DNA of 31,841 nt from the IMG/VR virus record IMGVR_UViG_2558860161_000007, positions 1 through 31,841 of that record, one strand, 5' to 3'. How positions within the stretch are numbered: the stretch's first letter is position 1; each line of letters opens with the position of its first letter. The notes below the pieces were generated by a model. It worked only from the letters and a program-made list of their open reading frames with translations. It did no database searches and had not been told where the DNA came from. This stretch comes from a virus (Duplodnaviria > Heunggongvirae > Uroviricota > Caudoviricetes). Positions 2,557 to 31,841 of the stretch are shown one piece after another. Position numbers and translations under genes: made by a program.

Positions 2557-2902
2557 TCTCTGCTCCTGTTGATACGGAAAGGGACACAGGCACACCGTTA
2601 TTCCGCCGCCCGGTCAGCTCCACCACCATTGAACCGTCAAAATTGCTGTTGATGGTGATGGAATCCAGCGTCAGCCGTGGCTCCCAGCGACTCAGTGCCA
2701 CATACACAGCCGACATGACCTGCAGGCGTAACGCCGGATTTTGTGGCTGATCTATTAAAGCCGACAGCAGGGAACCATATTCCCGGCGGGCAATGCGGCT
2801 ACCCTGCGGTGTCAGCAGAATGTCCCGCACCGACTGGCGCAGATGGTCAATATCAGTAATAGCTTTACCGCTGGTATTGTTCATCCCGCTATAAAGCGTC
2901 AT
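2543..2902 (-). CDS. W: Baseplate wedge protein W (gp25/GPW family)
   Basis: 119-aa ORF between V and J; size, synteny and sequence typical of P2 gpW. Confidence 0.8.
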   Translation of the reverse strand: MTLYSGMNNTSGKAITDIDHLRQSVRDILLTPQGSRIARREYGSLLSALIDQPQNPALRLQVMSAVYVALSRWEPRLTLDSITINSNFDGSMVVELTGRRNNGVPVSLSVSTGAENGSD

Positions 2903-3477
2903 ACCGGACCTCCGGTGGTATCGCCGCCTTTCAGGACGCCAGTATGCTGATGCGCATCAACCACGATCCCGTTAGAACTCATCGCTCCGCCGCCCTGGGT
3001 AACGCCACCATTGATCACCACTTCGCTGTTAATGCGCGTGCGGTCAGCCTCCAGTACAAACTCACTGGTTTTCATGGTGATGTTGTCAGCGGCCTCAATG
3101 ACCATTGATTTGATGCCCCTGACATACCAGCGCCCACTGGCGGGTTCGTATTCAAACCAGCCACCGTCAGGATGTTCTGTCACGCAGGCGTCCGCCGACG
3201 TCGACGGTGGTGCGAACTGATTCGAATAGACAGCGGGCAGCGCAAAGGCCGTCTCCAGATTGCCGCCCAGACTCAGCAGCACCACCTGCTCACCTTCCGA
3301 TGGTCGCCACCATGTGCGGGCATTACCCGCGCGCAGCGTCAGCCAGTTAATCCAGTTGGTTTCAAGGTCGCCCGTTTTCACCCGGCAAAGCCAGTTTTCC
3401 CGGTCCACTTCGGTGACTACACCAGTGCGGATCAGGTTGGTGATAAGGCGCATGATTTCGGTTAATTGTGCGTTCAT
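2899..3477 (-). CDS. V: Baseplate spike/assembly protein V (P2 gpV-like)
   Basis: 192-aa ORF; N-terminal region (TGVV..V....CRV.TG) and C-terminal glycine-rich end resemble P2 gpV; first gene of the V-W-J-I-H block. Confidence 0.85.
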   Translation of the reverse strand: MNAQLTEIMRLITNLIRTGVVTEVDRENWLCRVKTGDLETNWINWLTLRAGNARTWWRPSEGEQVVLLSLGGNLETAFALPAVYSNQFAPPSTSADACVTEHPDGGWFEYEPASGRWYVRGIKSMVIEAADNITMKTSEFVLEADRTRINSEVVINGGVTQGGGAMSSNGIVVDAHQHTGVLKGGDTTGGPV

Positions 3478-3523: not shown

Positions 3524-3541
3524 TGTATCAGTGCTGATACA
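3524..3541. promoter_or_regulatory. TGT-N12-ACA dyad (candidate Ogr/Delta-type late-promoter activator site) upstream of gene V
   Basis: Sequence tgtatcagtgctgataca read directly, ~55 bp upstream of the V start codon. P2-family late promoters carry a TGT-N12-ACA element near -55. Confidence 0.4.
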
Positions 3542-8519: not shown

Positions 8520-9353
8520 TCAGCAATTGGTCAGAGTGTCAGCGGGGGCGTTACCGCCTGTTGCACGCTGGCGGTAGTCCTGGCGGCTGTCTACATGACT
8601 CAGCTTATTCACCAGTTCGTTAAAGGCGGTCTGCTGTGCCTGCAGGGCAGTCTCCAGCTCAGACAGACGTTCTTCCTGCTCAGACAGGGATTTTTCGGTG
8701 CGTGCGCTCAGGTTCTGCTGCTCAGTGGCGACCAGCTCCACGGCCTTATGCACATCAGAGAACCGGGCGTCATCGGACTGCTCTTTTTTGGTAAACAGCG
8801 CCGTGACGCGGGCAAACAGGGACGGTTTGTCGTCCTGGACTTCTTCCAGTTCGATCACCGTTTCCTCTGCGGCGGTAAAGAGATTGGCGGGATTCTGCTT
8901 GCGGTTTGCCAGCGGGTTATGGGCTGCACTGGCGCTGAATGTCAGCATTTCAGTGCCCAGACTGGCAGGGTCATCAGTGGCAGCCAGGCCGACCAGGTAG
9001 GCTTTGCCCGTATCAGCGAACTTCGGGCTGACTTCCATAGAGGTGAATAATTTCTGGCCTTTTTTCACCAGCTCCACCAGGGACTCCGTTGGCTCAACGT
9101 CGGCATACAGCGCCATCTTGCCTGCCAGCGGACCTTCCGTGATTTCTTCAGCAAACAGCGCCGTCACCTTGCCGTAGCGGTTAAAGGTGCTGTCCGGCAG
9201 ATAAGACTTGATGTGCTCAAGGTTAATCAGCGCGGTATACACCGCCGGGTTATAGCTGGCTGCCATCTGTTCCAGCCATTCACGCTGGATTTCGCGTCCG
9301 TCGGTGGTGGCACCTTCCACCCCGATGCGAAAACGCTTTGCTTTCACTGTCAT
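8520..9353 (-). CDS. O: Capsid scaffolding protein O (P2 gpO-like)
   Basis: 277-aa ORF; acidic coiled-coil C-terminus; first gene of the leftward late operon, divergent from P. Confidence 0.85.
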   Translation of the reverse strand: MTVKAKRFRIGVEGATTDGREIQREWLEQMAASYNPAVYTALINLEHIKSYLPDSTFNRYGKVTALFAEEITEGPLAGKMALYADVEPTESLVELVKKGQKLFTSMEVSPKFADTGKAYLVGLAATDDPASLGTEMLTFSASAAHNPLANRKQNPANLFTAAEETVIELEEVQDDKPSLFARVTALFTKKEQSDDARFSDVHKAVELVATEQQNLSARTEKSLSEQEERLSELETALQAQQTAFNELVNKLSHVDSRQDYRQRATGGNAPADTLTNC

Positions 9354-9431
9354 GAGCCGTGCTCCGTTAGAAAAAACTTACTGGAGCCTTATGGTTGCGG
9401 TGATAGGGGCAGTGAAACAATGCGCGGTATT

Positions 9432-9449
9432 TGTACCGACAACCACACA
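9432..9449. promoter_or_regulatory. TGT-N12-ACA dyad (candidate late-promoter activator site) in the O/P divergent intergenic region
   Basis: Sequence tgtaccgacaaccacaca read directly; geometry fits a late promoter for the O operon. Confidence 0.4.
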
Positions 9450-9495
9450 AACCGCAGGCGGGGAAAGCCTTCATTCAAGGCTGTAGGTTTGTGCC

Positions 9496-11262
9496 ATGAA
9501 CACCACACTGACACCCGCAGATCTCGATCCCCGTCGGCAGGCCATGCTGCTGTACTTTCAGGGATACCGCGTCGCCCGCATTGCTGAAATGCTGGGCGAG
9601 AAAGTTGCAACCGTTCACAGCTGGAAAAAACGCGACAAGTGGGGTGACTATGGGCCGCTGGATCAGATGCAGCTCACCACCGCCGCACGCTACTGCCAGC
9701 TCATTATGAAGGAGCACAAAGAAGGGAAAGATTTCAAAGAAATTGACCTGCTGGCGCGCCAGTCGGAGCGCCACGCGCGGATCGGCAAGTTTAACAATGG
9801 CGGCAACGAAGCCGACTTAAACCCTAACGTCGCCAACCGCAACAAAGGCCCGCGCCGTCAGCCGGAAAAGAATGTTTTCACCGATGAGCAGATTGAGAAG
9901 CTGGAAGAAATCTTCCATTCCTCCATGTTTAACTACCAGCGCCACTGGTGGGAAGCCGGAAAAACCAACCGCATCCGCAACCTGCTGAAGTCACGCCAGA
10001 TCGGCGCGACCTTTTACTTTGCCCGTGAAGCCCTGATTGACGCTCTGCTTACCGGACGTAACCAGATTTTTCTTTCCGCCAGCAAGGCACAGGCTCACGT
10101 CTTTAAGCAGTACATCATAGACTTCGCCAAAGAAGTCGAGGTGGAGCTGAAAGGCGATCCGATGGTGCTTCCTAACGGAGCCACGCTTTACTTCCTCGGC
10201 ACCAATGCCCGCACGGCCCAGAGTTACCACGGCAACCTGTATCTGGATGAATATTTCTGGATACCGAAATTCCAGGAACTGCGCAAAGTTGCCTCCGGGA
10301 TGGCCATTCACAAGAAATGGCGACAAACCTACTTTTCCACGCCGTCCAGCCTTACCCACAGTGCCTATCCGTTCTGGTCCGGTGCGCTGTTTAACCGGGG
10401 CCGCGCCAAAGCGGACAAGGTGGATATTGACCTGACCCACAGCAATCTTGCGCGCGGCCTGCTCTGCCCTGACGGACAGTACCGCCAGATCGTCACCGTG
10501 GAGGATGCGGTGCGCGGCGGCTGTAACCTGTTCGACCTCGACCAGCTGCGCATGGAGTACAGCCCGGACGAATACCAGAACCTGCTGATGTGCGAATTTA
10601 TTGACGATTTGGCGTCAGTATTCCCGCTCAGCGAACTGCAGGCATGCATGGTGGACAGCTGGGAAGTCTGGACCGATTTTCAGGCTCTGGCGCTGCGCCC
10701 GTTTGGCTGGCGCGAGGTCTGGATCGGATACGACCCGGCGAAAGGCACGCAGAACGGTGACAGCGCCGGGTGCGTGGTGGTGGCACCGCCAGCCGTGCCG
10801 GGCGGCAAGTTCCGCATTCTGGAGCGACACCAGTGGCGCGGGATGGACTTCCGCGCCCAGGCTGACGCCATTAAAAAACTGACGCAGCAGTACAACGTGA
10901 CATACATCGGTATCGACTCGACCGGCGTTGGTCACGGGGTTTATGAGAACGTGAAAGCGTTCTTTCCTGCCGTGCGGGAGTTTGTCTACAACCCCAACGT
11001 CAAAAACGCCCTGGTGCTCAAGGCCTACGACATCATCAGCCACCGCCGTCTGGAGTTTGACGCCGGACACACTGACATTGCGCAGTCATTCATGGCAATC
11101 CGTCGCGCAACCACCGCCAGCGGCAACCGCCCGACCTATGAAGCCAGCCGCAGCGAAGAAGCCAGCCACGCCGATCTGGCCTGGGCAACAATGCACGCAC
11201 TGTTTAACGAACCGCTGCAGGGCGAATCCGCCAATACCAGCAATATTGTGGAGATTTTTTGA
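9496..11262 (+). CDS. P: Terminase large (ATPase) subunit P (P2 gpP-like)
   Basis: 588-aa ORF, nearly the P2 P length; Walker-A-like KSRQIGAT motif; overall resemblance. Confidence 0.9.
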   Translation: MNTTLTPADLDPRRQAMLLYFQGYRVARIAEMLGEKVATVHSWKKRDKWGDYGPLDQMQLTTAARYCQLIMKEHKEGKDFKEIDLLARQSERHARIGKFNNGGNEADLNPNVANRNKGPRRQPEKNVFTDEQIEKLEEIFHSSMFNYQRHWWEAGKTNRIRNLLKSRQIGATFYFAREALIDALLTGRNQIFLSASKAQAHVFKQYIIDFAKEVEVELKGDPMVLPNGATLYFLGTNARTAQSYHGNLYLDEYFWIPKFQELRKVASGMAIHKKWRQTYFSTPSSLTHSAYPFWSGALFNRGRAKADKVDIDLTHSNLARGLLCPDGQYRQIVTVEDAVRGGCNLFDLDQLRMEYSPDEYQNLLMCEFIDDLASVFPLSELQACMVDSWEVWTDFQALALRPFGWREVWIGYDPAKGTQNGDSAGCVVVAPPAVPGGKFRILERHQWRGMDFRAQADAIKKLTQQYNVTYIGIDSTGVGHGVYENVKAFFPAVREFVYNPNVKNALVLKAYDIISHRRLEFDAGHTDIAQSFMAIRRATTASGNRPTYEASRSEEASHADLAWATMHALFNEPLQGESANTSNIVEIF

Positions 11263-12694: not shown

Positions 12695-13815
12695 TACTCT
12701 CCTCCTAACGCCCGCATGATTTCCATAAGTTGAGGGTCATTTTCTTCGTTATCGTAATCTTTATCGATCGCCAGTTCATGAATCTTAAAACGGCATGAAA
12801 TTGCCACACCTGACCACTCTTTATGCAATTCAGTGTAGCTCAATTGATCACCAACTGCCTCTAAGCATACATTTCCTGTAGCCAGTTGCAATTCCCCGTT
12901 GTATGTTTTTACCAATTTCATCAAGTGATATAGACCAAGCCCTTGATGATTATTCTCTTTTTCTTTAACTGCTACCGGAACACTTGCACCAAAGACGCTT
13001 CCACCCATATTGTCATACGGCAATTGCTGTGCCCAATCATCTATCAGATCAGCATGTTTAGATGAGTTACCTTCTTGTATACACCATGCTATGGCATCAC
13101 GATGATTGTCAATTCCTTTGATGCCTGCGCGCCTTAACTCTCTAAAAAACCCCATGCCACAGTCTGCAAGAGCAAACTCAAGATAATGCTCTTTTCCACC
13201 GGTTCTTGGTACTGCCCATTTTTGCGCAAAAGAAAAACCGGTATCCCTACCATGCGACCAGACGTTGTCGTGTAACTCACCAACCACACGTGTGAGATCG
13301 TTTATCCCTTGAGGATAAACCTTCCTCTCAGGGAATGTTAATTGCCTAATACAGCTATTTATACTTGAAGTAGCTGAATCGACTGCTTCAACATTCTTCA
13401 GAGCTGTCACAAGGCTGTAGTTGGTTCCGACATTAACTCTTTTTTGGTCATAACGGTCTTCCCCCCAAACAGCTTTGTGCAGACCAATGGCATTCATGTA
13501 ACCTGCGCCAGGTAAGTTGCAAGCATCTTCTGACAGCTTATTGTGATTTATATAAGCAGCCAAGACAGCAATATAGCCAGGGTGACAATGGTCATTCGGT
13601 AAAAGCAATTTCCCCTCACCACGATCATGAAATATAGCAATGCGGTGAATACCATCTTTTAGACCAAATCCCATTGACCAATCTCCACGAAAAATTTCCC
13701 CTATAATATCGCCTGGGAAAACTGAGCGCAAAGTAAAGCACTTAACCAAGCTTGCGCGCGCTCGTATCCCCGCCACGCCTGCCCGCTTTATGTAGTGGTT
13801 TTCATGCACCTGCAT
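12694..13815 (-). CDS. GHKL-superfamily (histidine-kinase-like) ATPase domain protein; first gene of the two-gene cargo operon
   Basis: 373-aa ORF with N-box-like VVGELHDNVWSHG, G1-like LADCGMGF and G2-like HQGLGLYHL in canonical order. The first ~27 codons overlap the cos-like site; an alternative start at Met48 (~13674) has a GGAG Shine-Dalgarno. The region is lower in GC than flanking phage genes. Confidence 0.6.
   Translation of the reverse strand: MQVHENHYIKRAGVAGIRARASLVKCFTLRSVFPGDIIGEIFRGDWSMGFGLKDGIHRIAIFHDRGEGKLLLPNDHCHPGYIAVLAAYINHNKLSEDACNLPGAGYMNAIGLHKAVWGEDRYDQKRVNVGTNYSLVTALKNVEAVDSATSSINSCIRQLTFPERKVYPQGINDLTRVVGELHDNVWSHGRDTGFSFAQKWAVPRTGGKEHYLEFALADCGMGFFRELRRAGIKGIDNHRDAIAWCIQEGNSSKHADLIDDWAQQLPYDNMGGSVFGASVPVAVKEKENNHQGLGLYHLMKLVKTYNGELQLATGNVCLEAVGDQLSYTELHKEWSGVAISCRFKIHELAIDKDYDNEENDPQLMEIMRALGGE
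13761..13800. other. cos-like site (cohesive-end region) of the P2/186-type prophage
   Basis: Reverse complement reads GGCGTGGCGGGGATACGAG, resembling the 19-nt P2/186 cohesive-end core as I recall it; the flank is homologous to two repeats in the satellite (24567..24640, 24878..24960). Confidence 0.5.
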
Positions 13816-20419: not shown

Positions 20420-21445
20420 ATGACCATCAGAAAACAGCCGAACGGAAAGTGGTTATGTGAATGCTACCCAAACGGGAGAGATGGCAAACGCGTACGCAAA
20501 CAATTTGCGACGAAAGGCGAAGCCATTGCGTTTGAGAATTTCACCATGGATGAGGTAAACAAGAAACCTTGGCTGGGAGAAAAGGAAGATCGGCGACAAC
20601 TGTCAGAAGTGATTGAGCAATGGTATTCCCTGTACGGTCAGACACTCGCTGACCCTAAGCGATTAATGGCTAAGTTAAAAATCATTTGTAATGGACTTGG
20701 CGATCCCATCGCTTCTGAATTGACAGCAGGTGATTTCACAAAGTACCGGGAAGCCAGATTAAAAGGTGAGGTCAAAAACGAAGATGGCGTGCTCATGTCA
20801 CCGGTTAAGCCCAGAACGGTGAACCTTGAACAGCGTAACCTATCCTCAGTTTTTGGCACACTGAAAAAGCTGGGACATTGGTCTGCACCCAACCCCCTCG
20901 CCGGTCTGCCAACTTTCAAAATTGCAGAAGGTGAACTGGCGTTCCTTGCTGCTGATGAAATCAAACGCCTGCTTGACGCATGTGCTGAATCTCAAAGTCC
21001 CAGTCTGCTAATGATTGCCAAGATTTGCCTGGCTACCGGGGCAAGATGGAGCGAAGCCGAAAACCTGCAAGGTAACCAGATATCAAAGTATCGAATTACC
21101 TATACCAAAACAAAAGGAAAGAAAAACCGAACTGTTCCTATTTCTCAGGAACTGTATGAAGAATTACCCAAAAACAGAGGAAAGTTATTCACACCATGCC
21201 GAAAGGCTTTTGAGCGTGCGGTAAAACGAGCTGGAATTGAACTACCTGAAGGTCAATGTACCCACGTTCTGCGCCACACTTTCGCCAGTCACTTTATGAT
21301 GAACGGCGGAAACATTTTGGTATTGAGGGATATTTTAGGACACGCTGATATTAAAATGACCATGATTTATGCCCATTTTGCACCGGATCATCTGGAAGAT
21401 GCCGTTACCAAAAATCCACTTCATAACCTCAACTGGCATCGCTAA
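20420..21445 (+). CDS. int: Tyrosine integrase (P2/186 family)
   Basis: 341-aa ORF; C-terminal catalytic region HVLRHTFASHF...LGHADIKMTMIYAH with the conserved R, H-x-x-R and Y; adjacent to the att core. Confidence 0.9.
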   Translation: MTIRKQPNGKWLCECYPNGRDGKRVRKQFATKGEAIAFENFTMDEVNKKPWLGEKEDRRQLSEVIEQWYSLYGQTLADPKRLMAKLKIICNGLGDPIASELTAGDFTKYREARLKGEVKNEDGVLMSPVKPRTVNLEQRNLSSVFGTLKKLGHWSAPNPLAGLPTFKIAEGELAFLAADEIKRLLDACAESQSPSLLMIAKICLATGARWSEAENLQGNQISKYRITYTKTKGKKNRTVPISQELYEELPKNRGKLFTPCRKAFERAVKRAGIELPEGQCTHVLRHTFASHFMMNGGNILVLRDILGHADIKMTMIYAHFAPDHLEDAVTKNPLHNLNWHR

Positions 21446-21562
21446 TAAATGGCGGCATTTTGGCGGCAGAACACTAAAAACAAGTAAAACAAGCAAATAC
21501 AGACTAACACTAACACAATGATTTAAAATAAAAAAATATGATTTTGTTAGTATAAAAATGGT

Positions 21563-21607
21563 ATGTAGGAATTTCGGACGCGGGTTCAACTCCCGCCAGC
21601 TCCACCA
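21563..21607 (+). other. ssrA: Attachment-site core identical in character to the 3' end of tmRNA (ssrA), ending ...GGTTCAACTCCCGCCAGCTCCACCA
   Basis: The ~45-nt atgtaggaatttcggacgcgggttcaactcccgccagctccacca matches my recollection of the enterobacterial tmRNA 3' terminus; upstream is AT-rich phage DNA and the int stop, so only a 3' fragment is present. Confidence 0.65.
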
Positions 21608-21642
21608 AATAATGATCCGGATGTGTCCGGTGAAGTACAGAA

Positions 21643-21677
21643 AGCCCGCATGGCACAAGCCCTGCGGGCTTTTTTGT
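21643..21677 (+). terminator. Rho-independent terminator (likely the native ssrA terminator)
   Basis: Perfect stem agcccgca / tgcgggct with a 12-nt loop, followed by TTTTTTG. Confidence 0.6.
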
Positions 21678-21791: not shown

Positions 21792-22991
21792 GTGGCACGG
21801 ACAACTCGCCCCCTAACCAACACCGAAGTTCTGCGCGCGAAAGCGTTAGAGAAGGATCTAACGCTGCATGATGGTGATGGGCTTTTCCTGATAGTGAAAA
21901 CTAGCGGCAAGAAACTCTGGCGCTTTCGCTATCAACGCCCAGCAACAAAACAACGGACTATGATGGGACTTGGTGCTTTTCCTGCCCTTTCTCTTGCTGA
22001 TGCCCGAGGGTTAAGAGCAGATTACCTTGCCCTATTAGCCAACGGAATCGACCCGCAAATTCAAGCTGAAGTTGCAGAGGAACAGCAGCAAATCGCTCTG
22101 GACAGTATTTTTTCGACGGTCGCCGCTAACTGGTTCCAGCTCAAAAGCAAAAGCGTTACCCCTGATTACGCTAAAGATATATGGCGTTCACTGGAAAAAG
22201 ACGTATTTCCAGCTATCGGTGAGACCCCTGTCCAGCAAATCAAAGCCCGAACACTGGTTGAAGCCCTTGAACCGATCAAAGCACGTGGGGCGCTGGAGAC
22301 AGTTCGTAGACTGGTACAGCGTATCAACGAAATAATGATTTATGCGGTTAACACTGGCTTGATTGATGCCAACCCCGCATCAGGTATTGGTATGGCTTTT
22401 GAGAAACCCAAAAAGCAAAACATGCCGACGTTGCGACCAGAAGAATTGCCTAAGCTGATGCGTTCGCTAGTCATGTCAAATCTATCTGTTCCGACTCGCT
22501 GTCTTATTGAGTGGCAACTCCTGACGCTCGTGCGCCCTTCTGAGGCTTCAGGTGCTCGATGGGCTGAGATCGATCTCAATGCCAAACTCTGGACAATTCC
22601 AGCCGAACGAATGAAAGCTAAACGTGAACATATAGTACCTCTATCTACACAGGCGTTAGAGATTCTAGAAGTGATGAAGCCAATCAGTGCTCATCGCGAA
22701 CATGTTTTTCCGAGCAGGAACGACCCCAAAAAATCAATGAACAGCCAAACGGCAAACGCTGCCTTAAAACGCATAGGCTATGGAGGTAAGCTTGTTGCTC
22801 ATGGTCTACGTTCTATAGCGAGTACAGCTCTTAATGAAAATGGTTTTAATCCAGATGTAATTGAAGCAGCATTAGCACATTCGGATAAGAATGAAGTAAG
22901 ACGTGCATATAATCGTTCTACCTATTTAGAACAACGTCATGAGTTAATGAATTGGTGGGGTTGTAAAGTTTGCCCTACCAATTCATTATAA
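21792..22991 (+). CDS. int: Tyrosine integrase (P4/CP4-57 family) of the satellite element
   Basis: 399-aa ORF (GTG start); N-terminal arm-binding-type region (GDGLFLIV...KLWRFRY) and C-terminal catalytic region (AHGLRS...ALAHSDKNEVRRAYNRSTY). Confidence 0.9.
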   Translation: MARTTRPLTNTEVLRAKALEKDLTLHDGDGLFLIVKTSGKKLWRFRYQRPATKQRTMMGLGAFPALSLADARGLRADYLALLANGIDPQIQAEVAEEQQQIALDSIFSTVAANWFQLKSKSVTPDYAKDIWRSLEKDVFPAIGETPVQQIKARTLVEALEPIKARGALETVRRLVQRINEIMIYAVNTGLIDANPASGIGMAFEKPKKQNMPTLRPEELPKLMRSLVMSNLSVPTRCLIEWQLLTLVRPSEASGARWAEIDLNAKLWTIPAERMKAKREHIVPLSTQALEILEVMKPISAHREHVFPSRNDPKKSMNSQTANAALKRIGYGGKLVAHGLRSIASTALNENGFNPDVIEAALAHSDKNEVRRAYNRSTYLEQRHELMNWWGCKVCPTNSL

Positions 22992-23002
22992 GATAAAACA
23001 GA

Positions 23003-24421
23003 TCATACTTTACCGGGGTATGTTTTAAACATACTCCTTAATACGTCAAATGTCTGTTCACCTATGATTGAAAATTCTTTAATCATTTCCATTAAGTTAT
23101 TTCGGCTAATCAAGAAAATATACAAACCTTGATCTTTCGATATTTCTTTCACTCTATCAAGATACTTTTCCTCGGCAGAATTTTCGCAGAATATTAAACC
23201 TATCTTAGAATTACATTCTTCGACTTTTCTAAGTGTAGTATAAATATGTTCCTCGTTCAATTTATGCTGAGGATCAATGACATTTACAACTATCAACTCT
23301 GAAATAATGTTGTACACTGAAAAATCGAAAAAGAAACCTTTCTTAGCCTCATTAATTAATGAAAAGAGGCAGCACTGTTCATCCTCACTTATTAATTTGG
23401 GGTAAAACAAGCTAGGATAGAAGATTGAAATCAATATTTTCTTGTATGCTTTAGTGTAATTACTAAAGTCGTTGTTTTTAATTGATAAATCAATATCTTT
23501 CATTAGATCTTTTATGGGGAGAATTACAGGATCTTCATCCTTATCAAAATCACTATGCGCTAGAGGATTCGGAGGATTAATCTCCAGCTCTTTTTTATAT
23601 TCTTTCAAGGTGTTAGGGTATTTTACGAGCTGAGACTCGATAAATCCCTTAGTCTGACCATACTCATCAATGATACTTGTTGTGGTAACAATCCGCTCCC
23701 CTTTAAGCACTTTAACTAATGCCGAGCCAGAGCTTATCAATTCCTTTTTCATTTCCGGAATAATATGCCTCCGATATAAATCCCTATGTGAATAGATTAT
23801 CTCTTCACGTGCAAGTATCTTAGGAATAAGGATAATCTCCTCGCCTTCATAAACAGGGAGATGAAAACGATTTTTATGCCATTTACTACTAACCTTATCC
23901 CACGTTTTGACTTCTGAAACCTCTTTAGTCTCAATGCCGTAAAATATACAAATATCCTTTGTATATTCTATAAAAAAACCTTTGAGAATATTACAAACTG
24001 AATCCGATATTCGGTCAGAACCAATACCTGGGATAGTCAGAGCTGTATCTTCTAGATCAGTTAATATTCCTGATTTTGCAGCCTGACTACTCTTTAGAGA
24101 ATCCAAAATATCTTCAGCAGTTTTTTCACCAAGAGCAGTTCCGGATGATTCTTTTGTTGAATATCCTAAATGAAAGGCATTGGTCTCTCTTAGTGATGAC
24201 AATAAATAAGCAGCTTTTTTAAAATTATTATTCTTTATAGACGCCATTATTTCTGTAAAATAGTCTTGTAACGCGTAAACTAAATCCTGCCCCCATTGGG
24301 ATTTTAAAACCTTTATAGATGTTGGATCTAAAAAAAACCTTAAATCAGTATGCAGAGGAATATCCAAAAAATCTAACGCTACTTGTCTGCCTTCAACTCC
24401 AAAAGCCTCTGAAAACCTCAT
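23003..24421 (-). CDS. Hypothetical AT-rich cargo protein (~472 aa) in the satellite int-cos hotspot
   Basis: ORF 23003..24448; likely start is the ATG at ~24421 with a GGAG Shine-Dalgarno. GC is markedly lower than its neighbours, it is convergent with int, and I recognise no domain by eye. Confidence 0.55.
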   Translation of the reverse strand: MRFSEAFGVEGRQVALDFLDIPLHTDLRFFLDPTSIKVLKSQWGQDLVYALQDYFTEIMASIKNNNFKKAAYLLSSLRETNAFHLGYSTKESSGTALGEKTAEDILDSLKSSQAAKSGILTDLEDTALTIPGIGSDRISDSVCNILKGFFIEYTKDICIFYGIETKEVSEVKTWDKVSSKWHKNRFHLPVYEGEEIILIPKILAREEIIYSHRDLYRRHIIPEMKKELISSGSALVKVLKGERIVTTTSIIDEYGQTKGFIESQLVKYPNTLKEYKKELEINPPNPLAHSDFDKDEDPVILPIKDLMKDIDLSIKNNDFSNYTKAYKKILISIFYPSLFYPKLISEDEQCCLFSLINEAKKGFFFDFSVYNIISELIVVNVIDPQHKLNEEHIYTTLRKVEECNSKIGLIFCENSAEEKYLDRVKEISKDQGLYIFLISRNNLMEMIKEFSIIGEQTFDVLRSMFKTYPGKV

Positions 24422-24566
24422 GTAACACTCCTTTACAATAATCAACATAAAAACAAGAGCATTCTTATTTTTATAGCAAAGGTGGTTTAATCACAAGATC
24501 TTATGAATTGAGCAACAATAATTATCCCTATTTTTTGAAGCTGACGAACATTTCACGTTGCGTACA

Positions 24567-25061: not shown

Positions 25062-25637
25062 TTATGCGGATTTTTTGCGGGTCTGCGCGGCCTGTCGGCG
25101 CATGAAAATCTGACTCTGTTCAGGCGTATATTTTGCCCGGTTGTCGTCTCTCGATGCTCTGTCAGGCCGGAAACCGATGGTTGTCAGAATGTCGCGATCA
25201 TCCTCTGCGTAATCAATATTTCCTCCGCGGGTTACATAAACGGACAGCGCTTCGCGAACACTGGCGGCCGCCCGGTCGAGAGCACGTTCTCTGACAATGT
25301 CAGGTTGTTCGCTGAGATGCATTAATTCCGGTGCCAGTGCGGCGGCCAGCGCGTCGCCGCTTACCTGCATAAAGGCGTGGAGCTGACACCGGATACTGAT
25401 ACGCTGCACGGCCTCATGTGACCGGATGTACTGCCCGGCCGACTGATTTACCGCCCATTTTTTCAGGTCAATATCATCCCGCAGCGCCTGTGCGGCCTCC
25501 GGTTCATAACGGGTGCAGGTCAGCTCCAGCTCCTTCAGCGCCATTTCTGCCCGCGCCAGTGCTGACTTGCTGCTCATCCAGTCCGATTTATTCTTCTGAC
25601 AGGTTTCAAAGGCCTGTTCCAGTAGTGCTCGTGCCAT
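25062..25637 (-). CDS. psu: Psu-like polarity suppression / capsid decoration protein
   Basis: 191-aa ORF; conserved AGQYIRSHEAVQ.ISIR and ILTTIGFRPD segments, as I recall for P4 Psu (190 aa). Confidence 0.8.
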   Translation of the reverse strand: MARALLEQAFETCQKNKSDWMSSKSALARAEMALKELELTCTRYEPEAAQALRDDIDLKKWAVNQSAGQYIRSHEAVQRISIRCQLHAFMQVSGDALAAALAPELMHLSEQPDIVRERALDRAAASVREALSVYVTRGGNIDYAEDDRDILTTIGFRPDRASRDDNRAKYTPEQSQIFMRRQAAQTRKKSA

Positions 25638-25653: not shown

Positions 25654-25896
25654 TCAGTGGCGCAGCGATGACCGGGCGCAGTCCAGAATTCGGGGCGGTG
25701 TTTCTGGTACTGTTTGTGGTGGTTCGGGCTTTTCTTCTGCCGGTGGCCGTATCACCTCGTCGATAGACTCGGTGGTGCGAAAGGTTGCGGAGCAAAAGAC
25801 ATTCACGCACTGGAGGTAGCTCTGTTTGACGTTATCTGACAGGTAACGGCTGGTACGGACATGGGCAGCCTGTTTGCAGTACGGGCAGCGCATCAT
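25654..25896 (-). CDS. delta: Delta/Ogr-family zinc-finger late transcription activator
   Basis: 80-aa ORF starting MMRCPYC with CPYC...C..C..CSATF, the hallmark of Ogr/Delta. Confidence 0.85.
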   Translation of the reverse strand: MMRCPYCKQAAHVRTSRYLSDNVKQSYLQCVNVFCSATFRTTESIDEVIRPPAEEKPEPPQTVPETPPRILDCARSSLRH

Positions 25897-26696
25897 GGCT
25901 TAACCCCCCGCGTTTTTTTCTTCTGTGCCAGCTCTTTAGCCCGCGCCATTCTGAGAACAGGGCTTTTATAGAGTTTCATATCCACGCCGGTGAGTGCCGG
26001 ACGGTGAAGCCCAATTTTTGAAATTACTGGTTCATGCTCCATGTTGAATGTGTAGTACCTGCTTTGCGCCAGTACATTCTCACCCAGCTCCTGAATGAGA
26101 ACGTTGTGAGGGTGTTCTTCTCCCTTAATCTCGAGCTCACGCAGACGTAACGCAAATGCGCGCACCAGTGAGGGAGGGATGTCTTTCATCACGGTCGCCC
26201 ACTCATTCCGGGAGTAGGCAGAGAACACCGTAAAATGCGTGCCGACGTACTTATCTCCTGATGTACAGGCGGACAGCATGGTACTGGCCTTATCATCGTT
26301 GAGTTCATCAATCAGGGCGGTGAATTCCTCCGCCAGCTCCCGACCGGCCACTCGCTGACTGTGTTCGGCTTTCAGTTCCGGGGTCATCATGCCGCGCAGT
26401 TCGCGAAAACGGGTACGCCAGTTCTGTTCGGCTTCGGCACTTTCATTCAGGGCGTTCTGACGCTCTTTCTCACTGCGGGCAATGGCCGCATCAATATCAT
26501 TCAGCTTCAGCATGTTTTCCGTGTGCGCGGATTTGGCCTTGCTGAACACATCAAGAGCGTTATTTATCGTGGCCTCGGCGTTCTGGTTTGCTTTCTCGTT
26601 AAGGGTATCCAGTGCGCTGTCAATGGCCGTGCGGATGTTCTCATCCTGCGTGCTGCCGATGGTTTTCATTACTGCGGTAAACAAATCTGGTTTCAT
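25893..26696 (-). CDS. sid: Sid-like capsid size determination protein (putative)
   Basis: 267-aa helical/charged protein in the sid position of the psu-delta-sid operon; assigned by synteny and character, not strong sequence recall. Confidence 0.5.
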   Translation of the reverse strand: MKPDLFTAVMKTIGSTQDENIRTAIDSALDTLNEKANQNAEATINNALDVFSKAKSAHTENMLKLNDIDAAIARSEKERQNALNESAEAEQNWRTRFRELRGMMTPELKAEHSQRVAGRELAEEFTALIDELNDDKASTMLSACTSGDKYVGTHFTVFSAYSRNEWATVMKDIPPSLVRAFALRLRELEIKGEEHPHNVLIQELGENVLAQSRYYTFNMEHEPVISKIGLHRPALTGVDMKLYKSPVLRMARAKELAQKKKTRGVKP

Positions 26697-26770
26697 CGTC
26701 GGGTTCTCTCTGTGTTTTCAACCTGACGCCATTCTGCCGTCCCTCAGACAACAACTCGATTCATTGCCGT

Positions 26771-26788
26771 TGTAGCAGACATGGCACA
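26771..26788. promoter_or_regulatory. TGT-N12-ACA dyad upstream of the sid operon (candidate Psid activator site)
   Basis: tgtagcagacatggcaca, ~83 bp upstream of the sid-like start. Confidence 0.4.
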
Positions 26789-26864
26789 AACAGGACTTAA
26801 AAACCCGGCTGGCCAGAGAAAGGTCGCAGGAAACCCCCTCTCTCTGTTTGTTTTTTTACATATA

Positions 26865-26970
26865 ACTATTCACTACTGTTCACTCAGAATAAAAATATAA
26901 GTAAAACAATAAATTAAAGAGTGAACAGTTGAGAGGGAAGTGTTCACCAACTGTTCACTACTGTTCACTG
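26865..26970. promoter_or_regulatory. Cluster of CTGTTCAC repeats (five or more copies, both orientations) in the satellite divergent regulatory region
   Basis: ctattcactactgttcactcag ... gagtgaacagttgag ... tgttcaccaactgttcactactgttcactgg, read directly. Confidence 0.35.
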
Positions 26971-27247
26971 GTCTGAACATCCCGAATGTAAATTTTATGC
27001 GGTATGTCCTATTAATTCATGCTGTTAGGGTGATTAAATCAATTTGCATTTCACTTTTGAAATCTCCAGTGCCTTATAACTCCTTCCAGTGCCTTTAAAT
27101 GGTCTTGAGTAAAAAAACAGCACCCGTTGTCCCGTGCTTTGTACAATTTCCCCCTGTTGCATTGAGAAAAAATATTCACAAAATAGAGCGCTACCTGATA
27201 CCGGACGGACACGTCCGGATCTCTGCGGATATTAACGAGGTAGCGTT

Positions 27248-27514
27248 ATGCACACAGTTTCATCAGTACCATCGTCCCCCACAACCGCGCACCTGATGCC
27301 GGTTTCAGCCCCGGCTCAGGAACGTTTTTTACGTCTCCCGGAAGTCATTCATCAGTGCGGTCTGTCCCGCTCCACGCTCTACGATTTAATTGCCCGCAAT
27401 GCTTTCCCGGCGCAGGTTTCCCTCGGGGGTAAAAATGTCGCCTGGCTGCAGTCTGAAATCACAGCGTGGATGGCAGAACGTGTCGCGCACCGCAACCGGA
27501 AATACGACGCATGA
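27248..27514 (+). CDS. AlpA/Vis-family HTH transcriptional regulator
   Basis: 88-aa ORF containing [29 protein letters not shown], the AlpA-type helix-turn-helix; GAGG Shine-Dalgarno upstream. Confidence 0.7.
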
Positions 27515-29507: not shown

Positions 29508-31841
29508 ATGAAAATGAACGTAACGGACACCGTAAAACAGGCGTGCGGCCACTGGCCGCGCATTCTCCCTGCGCTGGGTGTAACGGTCATCAAAAACCGC
29601 CATCAGGCCTGTCCGGTGTGTGGCGGCTCCGACCGCTTTCGCTTTGATGATAAAGAGGGACGCGGGACGTGGTTCTGCAATCAGTGCGGCGCGGGTGACG
29701 GGCTTAAGCTGGTAGAAAAAGTGTTCGGCGTGACCCCGTCAGAGGCCGCCGGGAAGGTGAACGCCGTGACCGGCAACCTGCCGCCGGTTTCCCCGGCGGT
29801 GACTGCGGCCGCAGACGCTGAAACAGAGGCAGACCGCAAAGCGGCGGCCGCGCTGGCCGTAAAACTGACGGAGAAAGCCCGACCGGTCACCGGCAACGCC
29901 TACCTCACCCGCAAGGGCTTCCCCGGCCGGGAATGCCTGACGCTCACCGCCCTGCACAAAACCGGCGGTGTGACGTACCGCGCCGGGGATGTGGTTGTCC
30001 CGCTTTATGATGATAGCGGCGCACTGGTTAACGTCCAGCTCATTAACGCGGACGGTCTCAAGCGCACCCTGAAAGGCGGTCAGGTAAAAGGGGCATGTCA
30101 TATTCTCGACGGAAAAAAAGAGGCGGGAAAGCGGCTGTGGATAGCGGAGGGCTACGCGACCGCGCTCACCGTGCATCACCTGACCGGCGAAACCGTCATG
30201 GTGGCGCTGTCGTCGGTGAACCTCCTTTCTCTGGCGAGCCTTGCCCGTCACACATACCCGGCCTGCCGGATTGTGCTGGCCGCCGACCGTGACCTCAGCG
30301 GCGACGGCCAGACCAAAGCGTCTGCGGCCGCAGAAGCCTGTGAGGGCGTGGTCGCCCTGCCGCCGGTGTTCGGTGACTGGAATGATGCGTATACACAGCA
30401 CGGCGGGGAGGCCACGCGTAAAGCCATGTATGACGCCATCCGGCCACCGGCTGACAGCCCTTTCTCTACCATGAGCGAGGCGGAGTTTACCGCCATGAGC
30501 ACCAGTGAGAAAGCCATGCGGGTGCATGAGCATTACGGCGAAGCGCTGGCGGTGGATGCGAACGGCCAGCTCCTGTCCCGTTATGAGGCGGGCATATGGA
30601 AAATCATTCCGCCGTCGGACTTTGCGCGCGACGTGGCCGGGCTGTTTCAGCGTCTGCGCGCCCCGTTCTCATCGGGAAAAATTGCCTCGGTGGTGGACAC
30701 CCTGAAACTGATTATTCCCCAGCAGGACGCCCCGCCACGGCGGCTGATTGGTTTTCGCAACGGGGTGCTCGATACCAAAAGCGGTATATTCAGCCCGCAC
30801 AGCAAAACGCACTGGCTGCGCACCCTGTGTGACGTGGATTTCACCCCGCCGGTGGAGGGGGAAACGCTGGAGACGCACGCGCCGAATTTCTGGCGCTGGC
30901 TCGACCGCGCCGCCGGTTCGCGTGCCGATAAACGTGACGTGATACTCGCCGCGCTGTTTATGGTGCTGGCGAACCGTTACGACTGGCAGCTCTTCCTCGA
31001 AGTGACCGGTCCCGGCGGCAGCGGGAAAAGTATTCTGGCCGAAATTGCGACCATGCTCGCCGGGGAAGATAACGCCACGTCGGCGACTATCGAGACGCTG
31101 GAATCCCCCCGCGAACGCGCGGCGCTGATTGGCTTCTCGCTGATACGTCTGCCTGACCAGGAGAAATGGAGCGGTGACGGGGCAGGACTCAAGGCCATCA
31201 CCGGCGGCGATGCGGTCTCCGTCGACCCGAAATACCGCGATGCATACTCCACCCATATTCCGGCGGTGATACTGGCCGTGAACAATAACCCGATGCGCTT
31301 CACCGACCGCAGCGGCGGGGTGTCCCGTCGCCGGGTGATAATGCACTTCCCGGAACAGATTGCCCCGGAAGAGCGTGACCCGAAGCTGAAAGATAAAATC
31401 GCCCGGGAGCTGGCCGTCATCGTGCGCCAGCTCATGCAGACGTTCAGCGACCCGATGACCGCGCGCACACTGCTCCAGTCGCAGCAGAACTCCGACGAGG
31501 CACTCAGCATCAAGCGCGACGCTGACCCGACATTCGATTTTTGTGGCTATCTGGAGGCACTGCCCGAGCCTGACGGTATGTATATGGGGAATGCGAATAT
31601 CATCCCGCGACAGCCGCGCCTGTACCTGTATCACGCCTATCTGGTCTACATGGAGGCGCACGGCTACAAGAACACACTCAGCCTGACCATGTTCGGCAAA
31701 GGACTGTCATCGATGCTGAAAGAGTACGGGCTGAATTACGGTAAGCGACGAACAAATCAGGGGATACAGACGAACCTTGCGCTCAGGGAGGAAAGCAACG
31801 CCGACTGGCTGCCCCGGTGCGATGAAACCACCGCGACATAA
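29508..31841 (+). CDS. alpha: Alpha-type primase/helicase (zinc-binding primase domain + TOPRIM-like + SF3-type P-loop NTPase)
   Basis: 777-aa ORF, the P4 alpha length as I recall it; N-terminal CPVCGG...CNQCG zinc motif; central acidic region LAADRDLSGDGQ; Walker A GPGGSGKS; stop at the window end. Confidence 0.9.
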   Translation: MKMNVTDTVKQACGHWPRILPALGVTVIKNRHQACPVCGGSDRFRFDDKEGRGTWFCNQCGAGDGLKLVEKVFGVTPSEAAGKVNAVTGNLPPVSPAVTAAADAETEADRKAAAALAVKLTEKARPVTGNAYLTRKGFPGRECLTLTALHKTGGVTYRAGDVVVPLYDDSGALVNVQLINADGLKRTLKGGQVKGACHILDGKKEAGKRLWIAEGYATALTVHHLTGETVMVALSSVNLLSLASLARHTYPACRIVLAADRDLSGDGQTKASAAAEACEGVVALPPVFGDWNDAYTQHGGEATRKAMYDAIRPPADSPFSTMSEAEFTAMSTSEKAMRVHEHYGEALAVDANGQLLSRYEAGIWKIIPPSDFARDVAGLFQRLRAPFSSGKIASVVDTLKLIIPQQDAPPRRLIGFRNGVLDTKSGIFSPHSKTHWLRTLCDVDFTPPVEGETLETHAPNFWRWLDRAAGSRADKRDVILAALFMVLANRYDWQLFLEVTGPGGSGKSILAEIATMLAGEDNATSATIETLESPRERAALIGFSLIRLPDQEKWSGDGAGLKAITGGDAVSVDPKYRDAYSTHIPAVILAVNNNPMRFTDRSGGVSRRRVIMHFPEQIAPEERDPKLKDKIARELAVIVRQLMQTFSDPMTARTLLQSQQNSDEALSIKRDADPTFDFCGYLEALPEPDGMYMGNANIIPRQPRLYLYHAYLVYMEAHGYKNTLSLTMFGKGLSSMLKEYGLNYGKRRTNQGIQTNLALREESNADWLPRCDETTAT

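Follow-up and report, generated by a model that had tools for sequence, protein, structure and literature searches.

The 18-bp element at positions 26771-26788 of the window, by which we mean the whole 31,841-nt stretch of DNA analyzed here, is very probably the upstream Delta/Ogr-family activator site of a class-I-type late promoter homologous to Psid of P4. This functional reading is based on homology to P4, a fixed 34-nt geometry between the element and a -10-like hexamer, conservation of the half-sites, and gene content. We infer the binding of an activator, the position of the transcription start and the activator dependence of the promoter from the sequence.

A P4-like satellite occupies the right third of the window, with the following genes.

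21792-22991, plus strand, P4-like tyrosine integrase
23003-24448, minus strand, 481-aa protein encoded between the integrase gene and psu; PHROG 27295, unknown function
25062-25637, minus strand, psu, 191 aa, last gene of the operon; PF07455, 1.3e-69
25654-25896, minus strand, delta, 80-aa single-domain Ogr/Delta zinc finger with the pattern C-x2-C-x22-C-x4-C; PF04606, 5.6e-18
25893-26696, minus strand, sid homolog, 267 aa, first gene of the operon; identified by BLASTP to P4 Sid, PHROGs and RefSeq names
27248-27514, plus strand, vis/alpA regulator
29508-31841, plus strand, alpha-type primase-helicase

As neither Pfam nor NCBIfam gives a family for Sid, its identity rests on BLASTP to P4 Sid (29% identity, E 2e-22), on its assignment to PHROG 6165 (Psu/Sid-like), and on its close RefSeq relatives, which are named 'capsid size-determining scaffold Sid'. 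Together with the Ogr_Delta and Psu family matches of the two products encoded downstream, these results bear out the satellite sid-delta-psu operon proposed in the first-pass annotation. The window Delta can be matched to either half of P4 Delta (166 aa), indicating that it is a single-domain form, and it is 43 to 57% identical to Ogr proteins of P2-like phages. We take P4-like satellites of the phiR73 type to have the same arrangement, with a short single Ogr-like Delta encoded between sid and psu. Single-domain delta directly follows sid in 55 of 56 related loci; no delta was seen after sid in the remaining one, L058. The 481-aa protein belongs to no Pfam or NCBIfam family. Its gene is at the variable 'hotspot' position of P4-like elements, where near-identical satellites encode a 472-aa DUF8370 protein.

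The element reads TGTAGCAGACATGGCACA (= tgtagcagacatggcaca, ttgTAGCAGACATGGCACAaa) and matches TGT-N12-ACA exactly, with TGT at 26771-26773 and ACA at 26786-26788. A pattern search thus returned the string and position that had been reported for it. The accompanying distance of ~83 bp to the sid-like start holds if it is taken from the dyad center (26779.5). From there, the distance to the A of the sid ATG (position 26696, minus strand) is 83.5 nt, and from the near edge it is 75 nt. Neither form of the bare motif that was counted shows enrichment in the window. There are 10 exact matches versus 7.39 +/- 2.55 in shuffles (20 of 100 shuffles reach 10), and 142 matches with one mismatch versus 143.9 expected. 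Because these counts are at chance level, the case for the dyad at 26771-26788 rests on homology and position. Further exact copies are found within genes, at 13271, 13336 and 27560. Another one, at 26962-26979, is built from origin (ori) repeats and is probably no activator site. The copy at 9490-9507 covers the start ATG (9496) of the gene for the terminase large subunit; it lies too near that gene for a -55 site and is probably due to chance.

Window positions 26731-27260 align with positions 9018-9550 of the P4 record X51522, the sid-ORF88 region, with 68.6% identity over 530 nt. In the pairwise alignment, TGTAGCAGACATGGCACA is opposite P4 TGTGCCAGCCCTGACACA (X51522 9493-9510), which is itself a TGT-N12-ACA motif upstream of sid. 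The elements of the proposed promoter are as follows.

26771-26788, minus strand, dyad TGT-N12-ACA (TGTGCCATGTCTGCTACA when read toward sid); proposed Delta/Ogr site of the Psid homolog, center at about -55.5 from the predicted start
26733-26750, minus strand, degenerate second dyad TGT-N12-AGA overlapping the -10; the P4 equivalent is a perfect TGT-N12-ACA
26731-26736, minus strand, -10-like hexamer CAGAAT (CACAAT in P4), present in all 24 enterobacterial loci described below; putative -10 by its position
26724, minus strand, predicted transcription start, 7 nt past the hexamer

In the sid direction, the order in the window is TGTGCCATGTCTGCTACA, 34 nt, CAGAAT, 34 nt and ATG, and in P4 it is TGTGTCAGGGCTGGCACA, 34 nt and CACAAT. 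The likeness to P4 Psid thus comprises the homologous dyad position, the TGT-N12-ACA motif, the 34-nt distance to a -10-like hexamer, and the sid-delta-psu operon downstream, with ori repeats and a divergent vis/PLL region on the other side. Homology to the P4 dyad, spacing and downstream genes all argue for the earlier proposal of a Delta/Ogr activator element at Psid, whose binding is predicted. The two systems differ in several respects. Eight of the 12 inner bases of the dyad differ in the sid direction, so that TGT, ACA and four inner positions are common; the -10 is CAGAAT in the window and CACAAT in P4; the dyad over the -10 is perfect in P4 and ends in AGA in the window; P4 Delta has two Ogr-like domains in tandem (166 aa), and the Delta of the window a single domain of 80 aa; and the Sid proteins have diverged to the 29% identity given above.

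The start at 26724 was placed from this geometry and from the published -55 rule (PMC3152322). If transcription begins there, the dyad center is at -55.5 and the predicted leader before the sid ATG is about 28 nt long. A scan of 26500-27400 for sigma-70 consensus promoters detected none. The hexamer at -35 is TCGAGT (3/6 consensus) and that at -10 is CAGAAT (4/6). The absence of a consensus promoter from this region and the TCGAGT at -35 fit an activator-dependent promoter, and beyond that consistency the result of the scan is uninformative. One weak terminator-like hairpin, at 26817-26804, matches chance expectation.

The late promoters PP, PO, PV and PF of P2, which depend on Ogr, are comparable. 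They share the TGT-N12-ACA consensus, which is centered near -55 as predicted for the window dyad, and a weak core, and their zinc-finger activator belongs to the same Pfam family (PMC3931495, PMC3152322). Unlike the Psid-type promoter of the window, they control structural and lysis genes of the helper. The targets of Ogr-family proteins are inverted repeats centered at approximately -55 of late promoters, and these proteins need contact with the RNA polymerase alpha subunit (PMC3152322, where a mutational study of a P4 late promoter is cited).

We then asked how the site compares across related loci. A Sid alignment was made from database homologs and 56 genomic loci were fetched, of which 24 enterobacterial ones were usable. 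These Enterobacteriaceae loci include Kluyvera, Klebsiella, Kosakonia, Citrobacter, Enterobacter and Phytobacter, and their Sid proteins are 48 to 97% identical. TGT-N12-ACA is present 89 to 92 nt before the sid ATG and exactly 34 nt before CAGAAT in 24/24 of them, the dyad-to-hexamer spacer being that of the window and of P4. Among the 26 sequences (window, P4 and 24 loci) there are 16 distinct 18-mers. TGT and ACA are constant in all of them and the left arm, in its extended form TGTG(C/T)CA, changes very little, while the central 4 to 5 bases vary freely. The six TGT/ACA columns are invariant in the 23 unique sequences, compared with only 33% of the upstream columns; the chance that six picked columns are all invariant is approximately 0.001, a naive and rough figure that ignores relatedness. 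That TGT and ACA remain constant even though the inner bases vary, among loci with Sid identities of 48 to 97% and of 29% for P4, indicates that this copy of the motif is beyond chance. Part of the conservation could stem from an overlapping origin, as the ori feature of P4 spans the region.

The second dyad, over the -10, has the form TGT-N12-AGA in the window and in all 24 enterobacterial loci, and P4 has the perfect TGT-N12-ACA TGTCCGGTGTACGTCACA there. The conservation of the element at 26733-26750 could merely mirror the -10 hexamer and a GTTGT block. A footprint study of P4 Delta reportedly found a second Delta site near -18 at Psid. With the single-domain Delta as a second cue, we speculate that the clade of the window may use one site where P4 uses two.

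On the other side of the dyad, TGTTCAC(T/C) repeats in both orientations are clustered at 26864-26975, and two TCCAGTGCCTT repeats are found in the region 27065-27095. They match in position the type-1 and type-2 ori repeats of P4, which are alpha primase sites; the P4 record annotates the type-1 repeats (TGTTCACC) and, further along, ORF88/vis. Two blocks in the stretch that separates the dyad from these repeats, AAAGGTCGCAGGAAA and CTGTTTGTTTTTTTA (26811-26860), are conserved across the window, P4 and most loci. Folding of the conserved block 26790-26862 gave no significant RNA structure on either strand (z +1.2 and -1.1). Beyond the repeats there is a further dyad.

27128-27145, plus strand, TGTCCCGTGCTTTGTACA, second dyad of the satellite; its P4 counterpart in the alignment is the TGT-N12-ACA upstream of ORF88/vis

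A -10-like CAAAAT/AAAATA is located 33 to 34 nt downstream of it, ahead of vis/alpA. The aligned P4 site is presumably the late promoter PLL, and the dyad at 27128-27145 likely belongs to another Delta/Ogr-dependent promoter in the satellite.

A Fels-2/P2-like prophage makes up the left two thirds of the window, and its scaffold-terminase region is 98 to 99% identical to phages 500465-1 and Cartapus. The prophage contains two dyads of helper type.

9432-9449, minus strand, helper dyad ahead of the gene for the head scaffold (8520-9353, minus strand); candidate counterpart of the P2 PO late promoter
3524-3541, minus strand, helper dyad TGTATCAGTGCTGATACA, whose 8-bp arms are perfect, ahead of the baseplate gene (2899-3477, minus strand); candidate counterpart of P2 PV

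The latter lies between the tail-completion and baseplate genes. CAACC(A/T) is found 34 nt downstream of both dyads; with CAACCA/CAACCT rather than CAGAAT at the 34-nt position, these core promoters differ in detail from that of sid. The PP-type dyad expected for the P/Q operon was not identified in the window. A six-frame scan of the window revealed no Ogr-type zinc finger other than that of Delta. As the sole finger of this type is that of the satellite, the activator gene of the helper has to be outside the window, beyond its left end. Ogr-type proteins of the helper type, such as that of phage Cartapus, are approximately 43% identical to the window Delta over the finger. The exact dyads at expected late-promoter locations and their shared CAACC(A/T) hexamer make it plausible that the satellite Delta acts on the helper late promoters. 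Activation in the other direction, from helper to satellite, cannot be supported from the sequence of the window alone. The reciprocal transactivation sketched in the first-pass annotation is thus plausible, though half documented, with helper-type dyads before the scaffold and baseplate genes on one side and a helper ogr that is absent from the window on the other.

At 21519-21675, the final 89 nt of tmRNA/ssrA (Rfam RF00023, E 2e-10) are followed by an IsrM-like terminator hairpin, and these positions hold no complete tmRNA gene. This ssrA 3' end lies between the Fels-2/P2-like integrase gene (20420-21445) and the P4-like integrase gene. Because a partial ssrA separates the two, the helper-type prophage and the satellite appear to occupy the ssrA attachment site in tandem.

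We considered whether the site might be a TGT-N12-ACA found upstream of sid by chance and devoid of function. The motif is no commoner in the window than expected (10 versus 7.4, and 142 versus 144 with one mismatch), and other copies fall in genes (13271, 13336, 27560) or in ori repeats (26962), as this explanation would have it. The homologous site in P4, its presence in 24/24 enterobacterial loci with identical 34-nt spacing, and the variable center amid diverged coding sequence nevertheless make chance extremely improbable. The site might also serve another protein or function, namely CRP, the satellite Vis/AlpA or, as a piece of the origin, the alpha primase. The annotated origin feature of P4 spans the region, and the left arm TGTGC resembles a CRP half-site, the CRP consensus being TGTGA-N6-TCACA. 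However, the half-sites are 12 bp apart and not 6, the CRP right-half positions are not conserved, and the type-1 repeats bound by alpha (TGTTCAC) are clustered apart from the dyad, at about 26866-26975. What is conserved matches the Ogr/Delta consensus exactly, and we regard a site for another protein as very unlikely. The CRP and origin readings of 26771-26788 were rejected on the spacing and on the separate place of the alpha-binding repeats.

It is also conceivable, although rather improbable, that the site is genuine but is used by the satellite Delta only, in an autoregulatory loop, and not by the Ogr of the resident Fels-2-type helper; the reciprocal half of the circuit would then be idle in this pair. 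The absence of the helper activator gene from the window, the identity of only about 43% between helper-type Ogr and the window Delta over the finger, and the fact that the helper dyads TGTGTGGTTGTCGGTACA and TGTATCAGCACTGATACA share little with the Psid dyad beyond TGT/ACA would agree with such a restriction. Against it, the TGT/ACA half-sites are common to helper and satellite sites, and in P2/P4 each activator works on both promoter sets, the late genes of both being activated by Delta and by Ogr (PMC8628076).

No TGT-N12-ACA is present at the equivalent position upstream of sid in the Erwinia/Pantoea loci. In the loci of Erwinia, Pantoea and Mixta (L028-L057), the core promoter is kept (CAGAAT, TTGTCC, GCAATGAAATG) in the region about 90 nt upstream of sid, and at the dyad position an 18-mer, either TTGCTGAGCGACAGGCAG or TTGTTCATCGACAGGCGG, takes the place of TGT-N12-ACA. 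The Delta proteins of these loci carry HAKSSRYM...CSCTFKT versus HxRTSRYL...CSATFRT in the clade of the window. With a variant dyad and a variant Delta occurring together, activator and operator may have co-varied between the clades. Joining these observations, one may tentatively propose that operator and activator have co-diverged within the satellite family, the clade of the window keeping the classical P2/P4 code and Erwinia/Pantoea differing from it, but we consider this unlikely on present evidence.

Under the preferred reading, that of an activator site of the Psid homolog, a zinc-finger activator of the Ogr/Delta family would bind the TGT and ACA half-sites, 12 bp apart and centered approximately 55 bp upstream of the start. 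The activator would be the 80-aa Delta of the satellite itself, its cognate protein encoded by the same operon (25654-25896), or an Ogr-type protein of the P2/Fels-2-like helper. Once bound, it would bring in sigma-70 RNA polymerase, by way of the alpha subunit, at a promoter with a weak -10 (CAGAAT) and no usable -35. Late in the helper-assisted cycle, sid, for capsid size determination, delta and psu would be switched on. The product of delta would then provide positive feedback and activate the helper late genes. Since delta is part of the operon, the site would close a positive feedback loop.

The element is a control site of an already understood type and implies no new mechanism. It indicates that the late-gene switch known from P4 for decades persists, with its geometry intact to the base, in a satellite that has only 29% identity to P4 in Sid. 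It supports an annotation rule for enterobacterial P4-like elements, namely TGT-N12-ACA located 34 nt upstream of CAGAAT/CACAAT before sid. It also delimits a promoter fragment (about 26697-26830) of practical use for the cross talk between the satellite and a Fels-2-type helper. If the co-divergence of operator and activator is true, the late-promoter dyads would represent a specificity code that pairs satellites with particular helper lineages, and one perfect site with a single-domain Delta would be the ancestral state, from which P4, with two perfect sites and a tandem Delta, would be derived.
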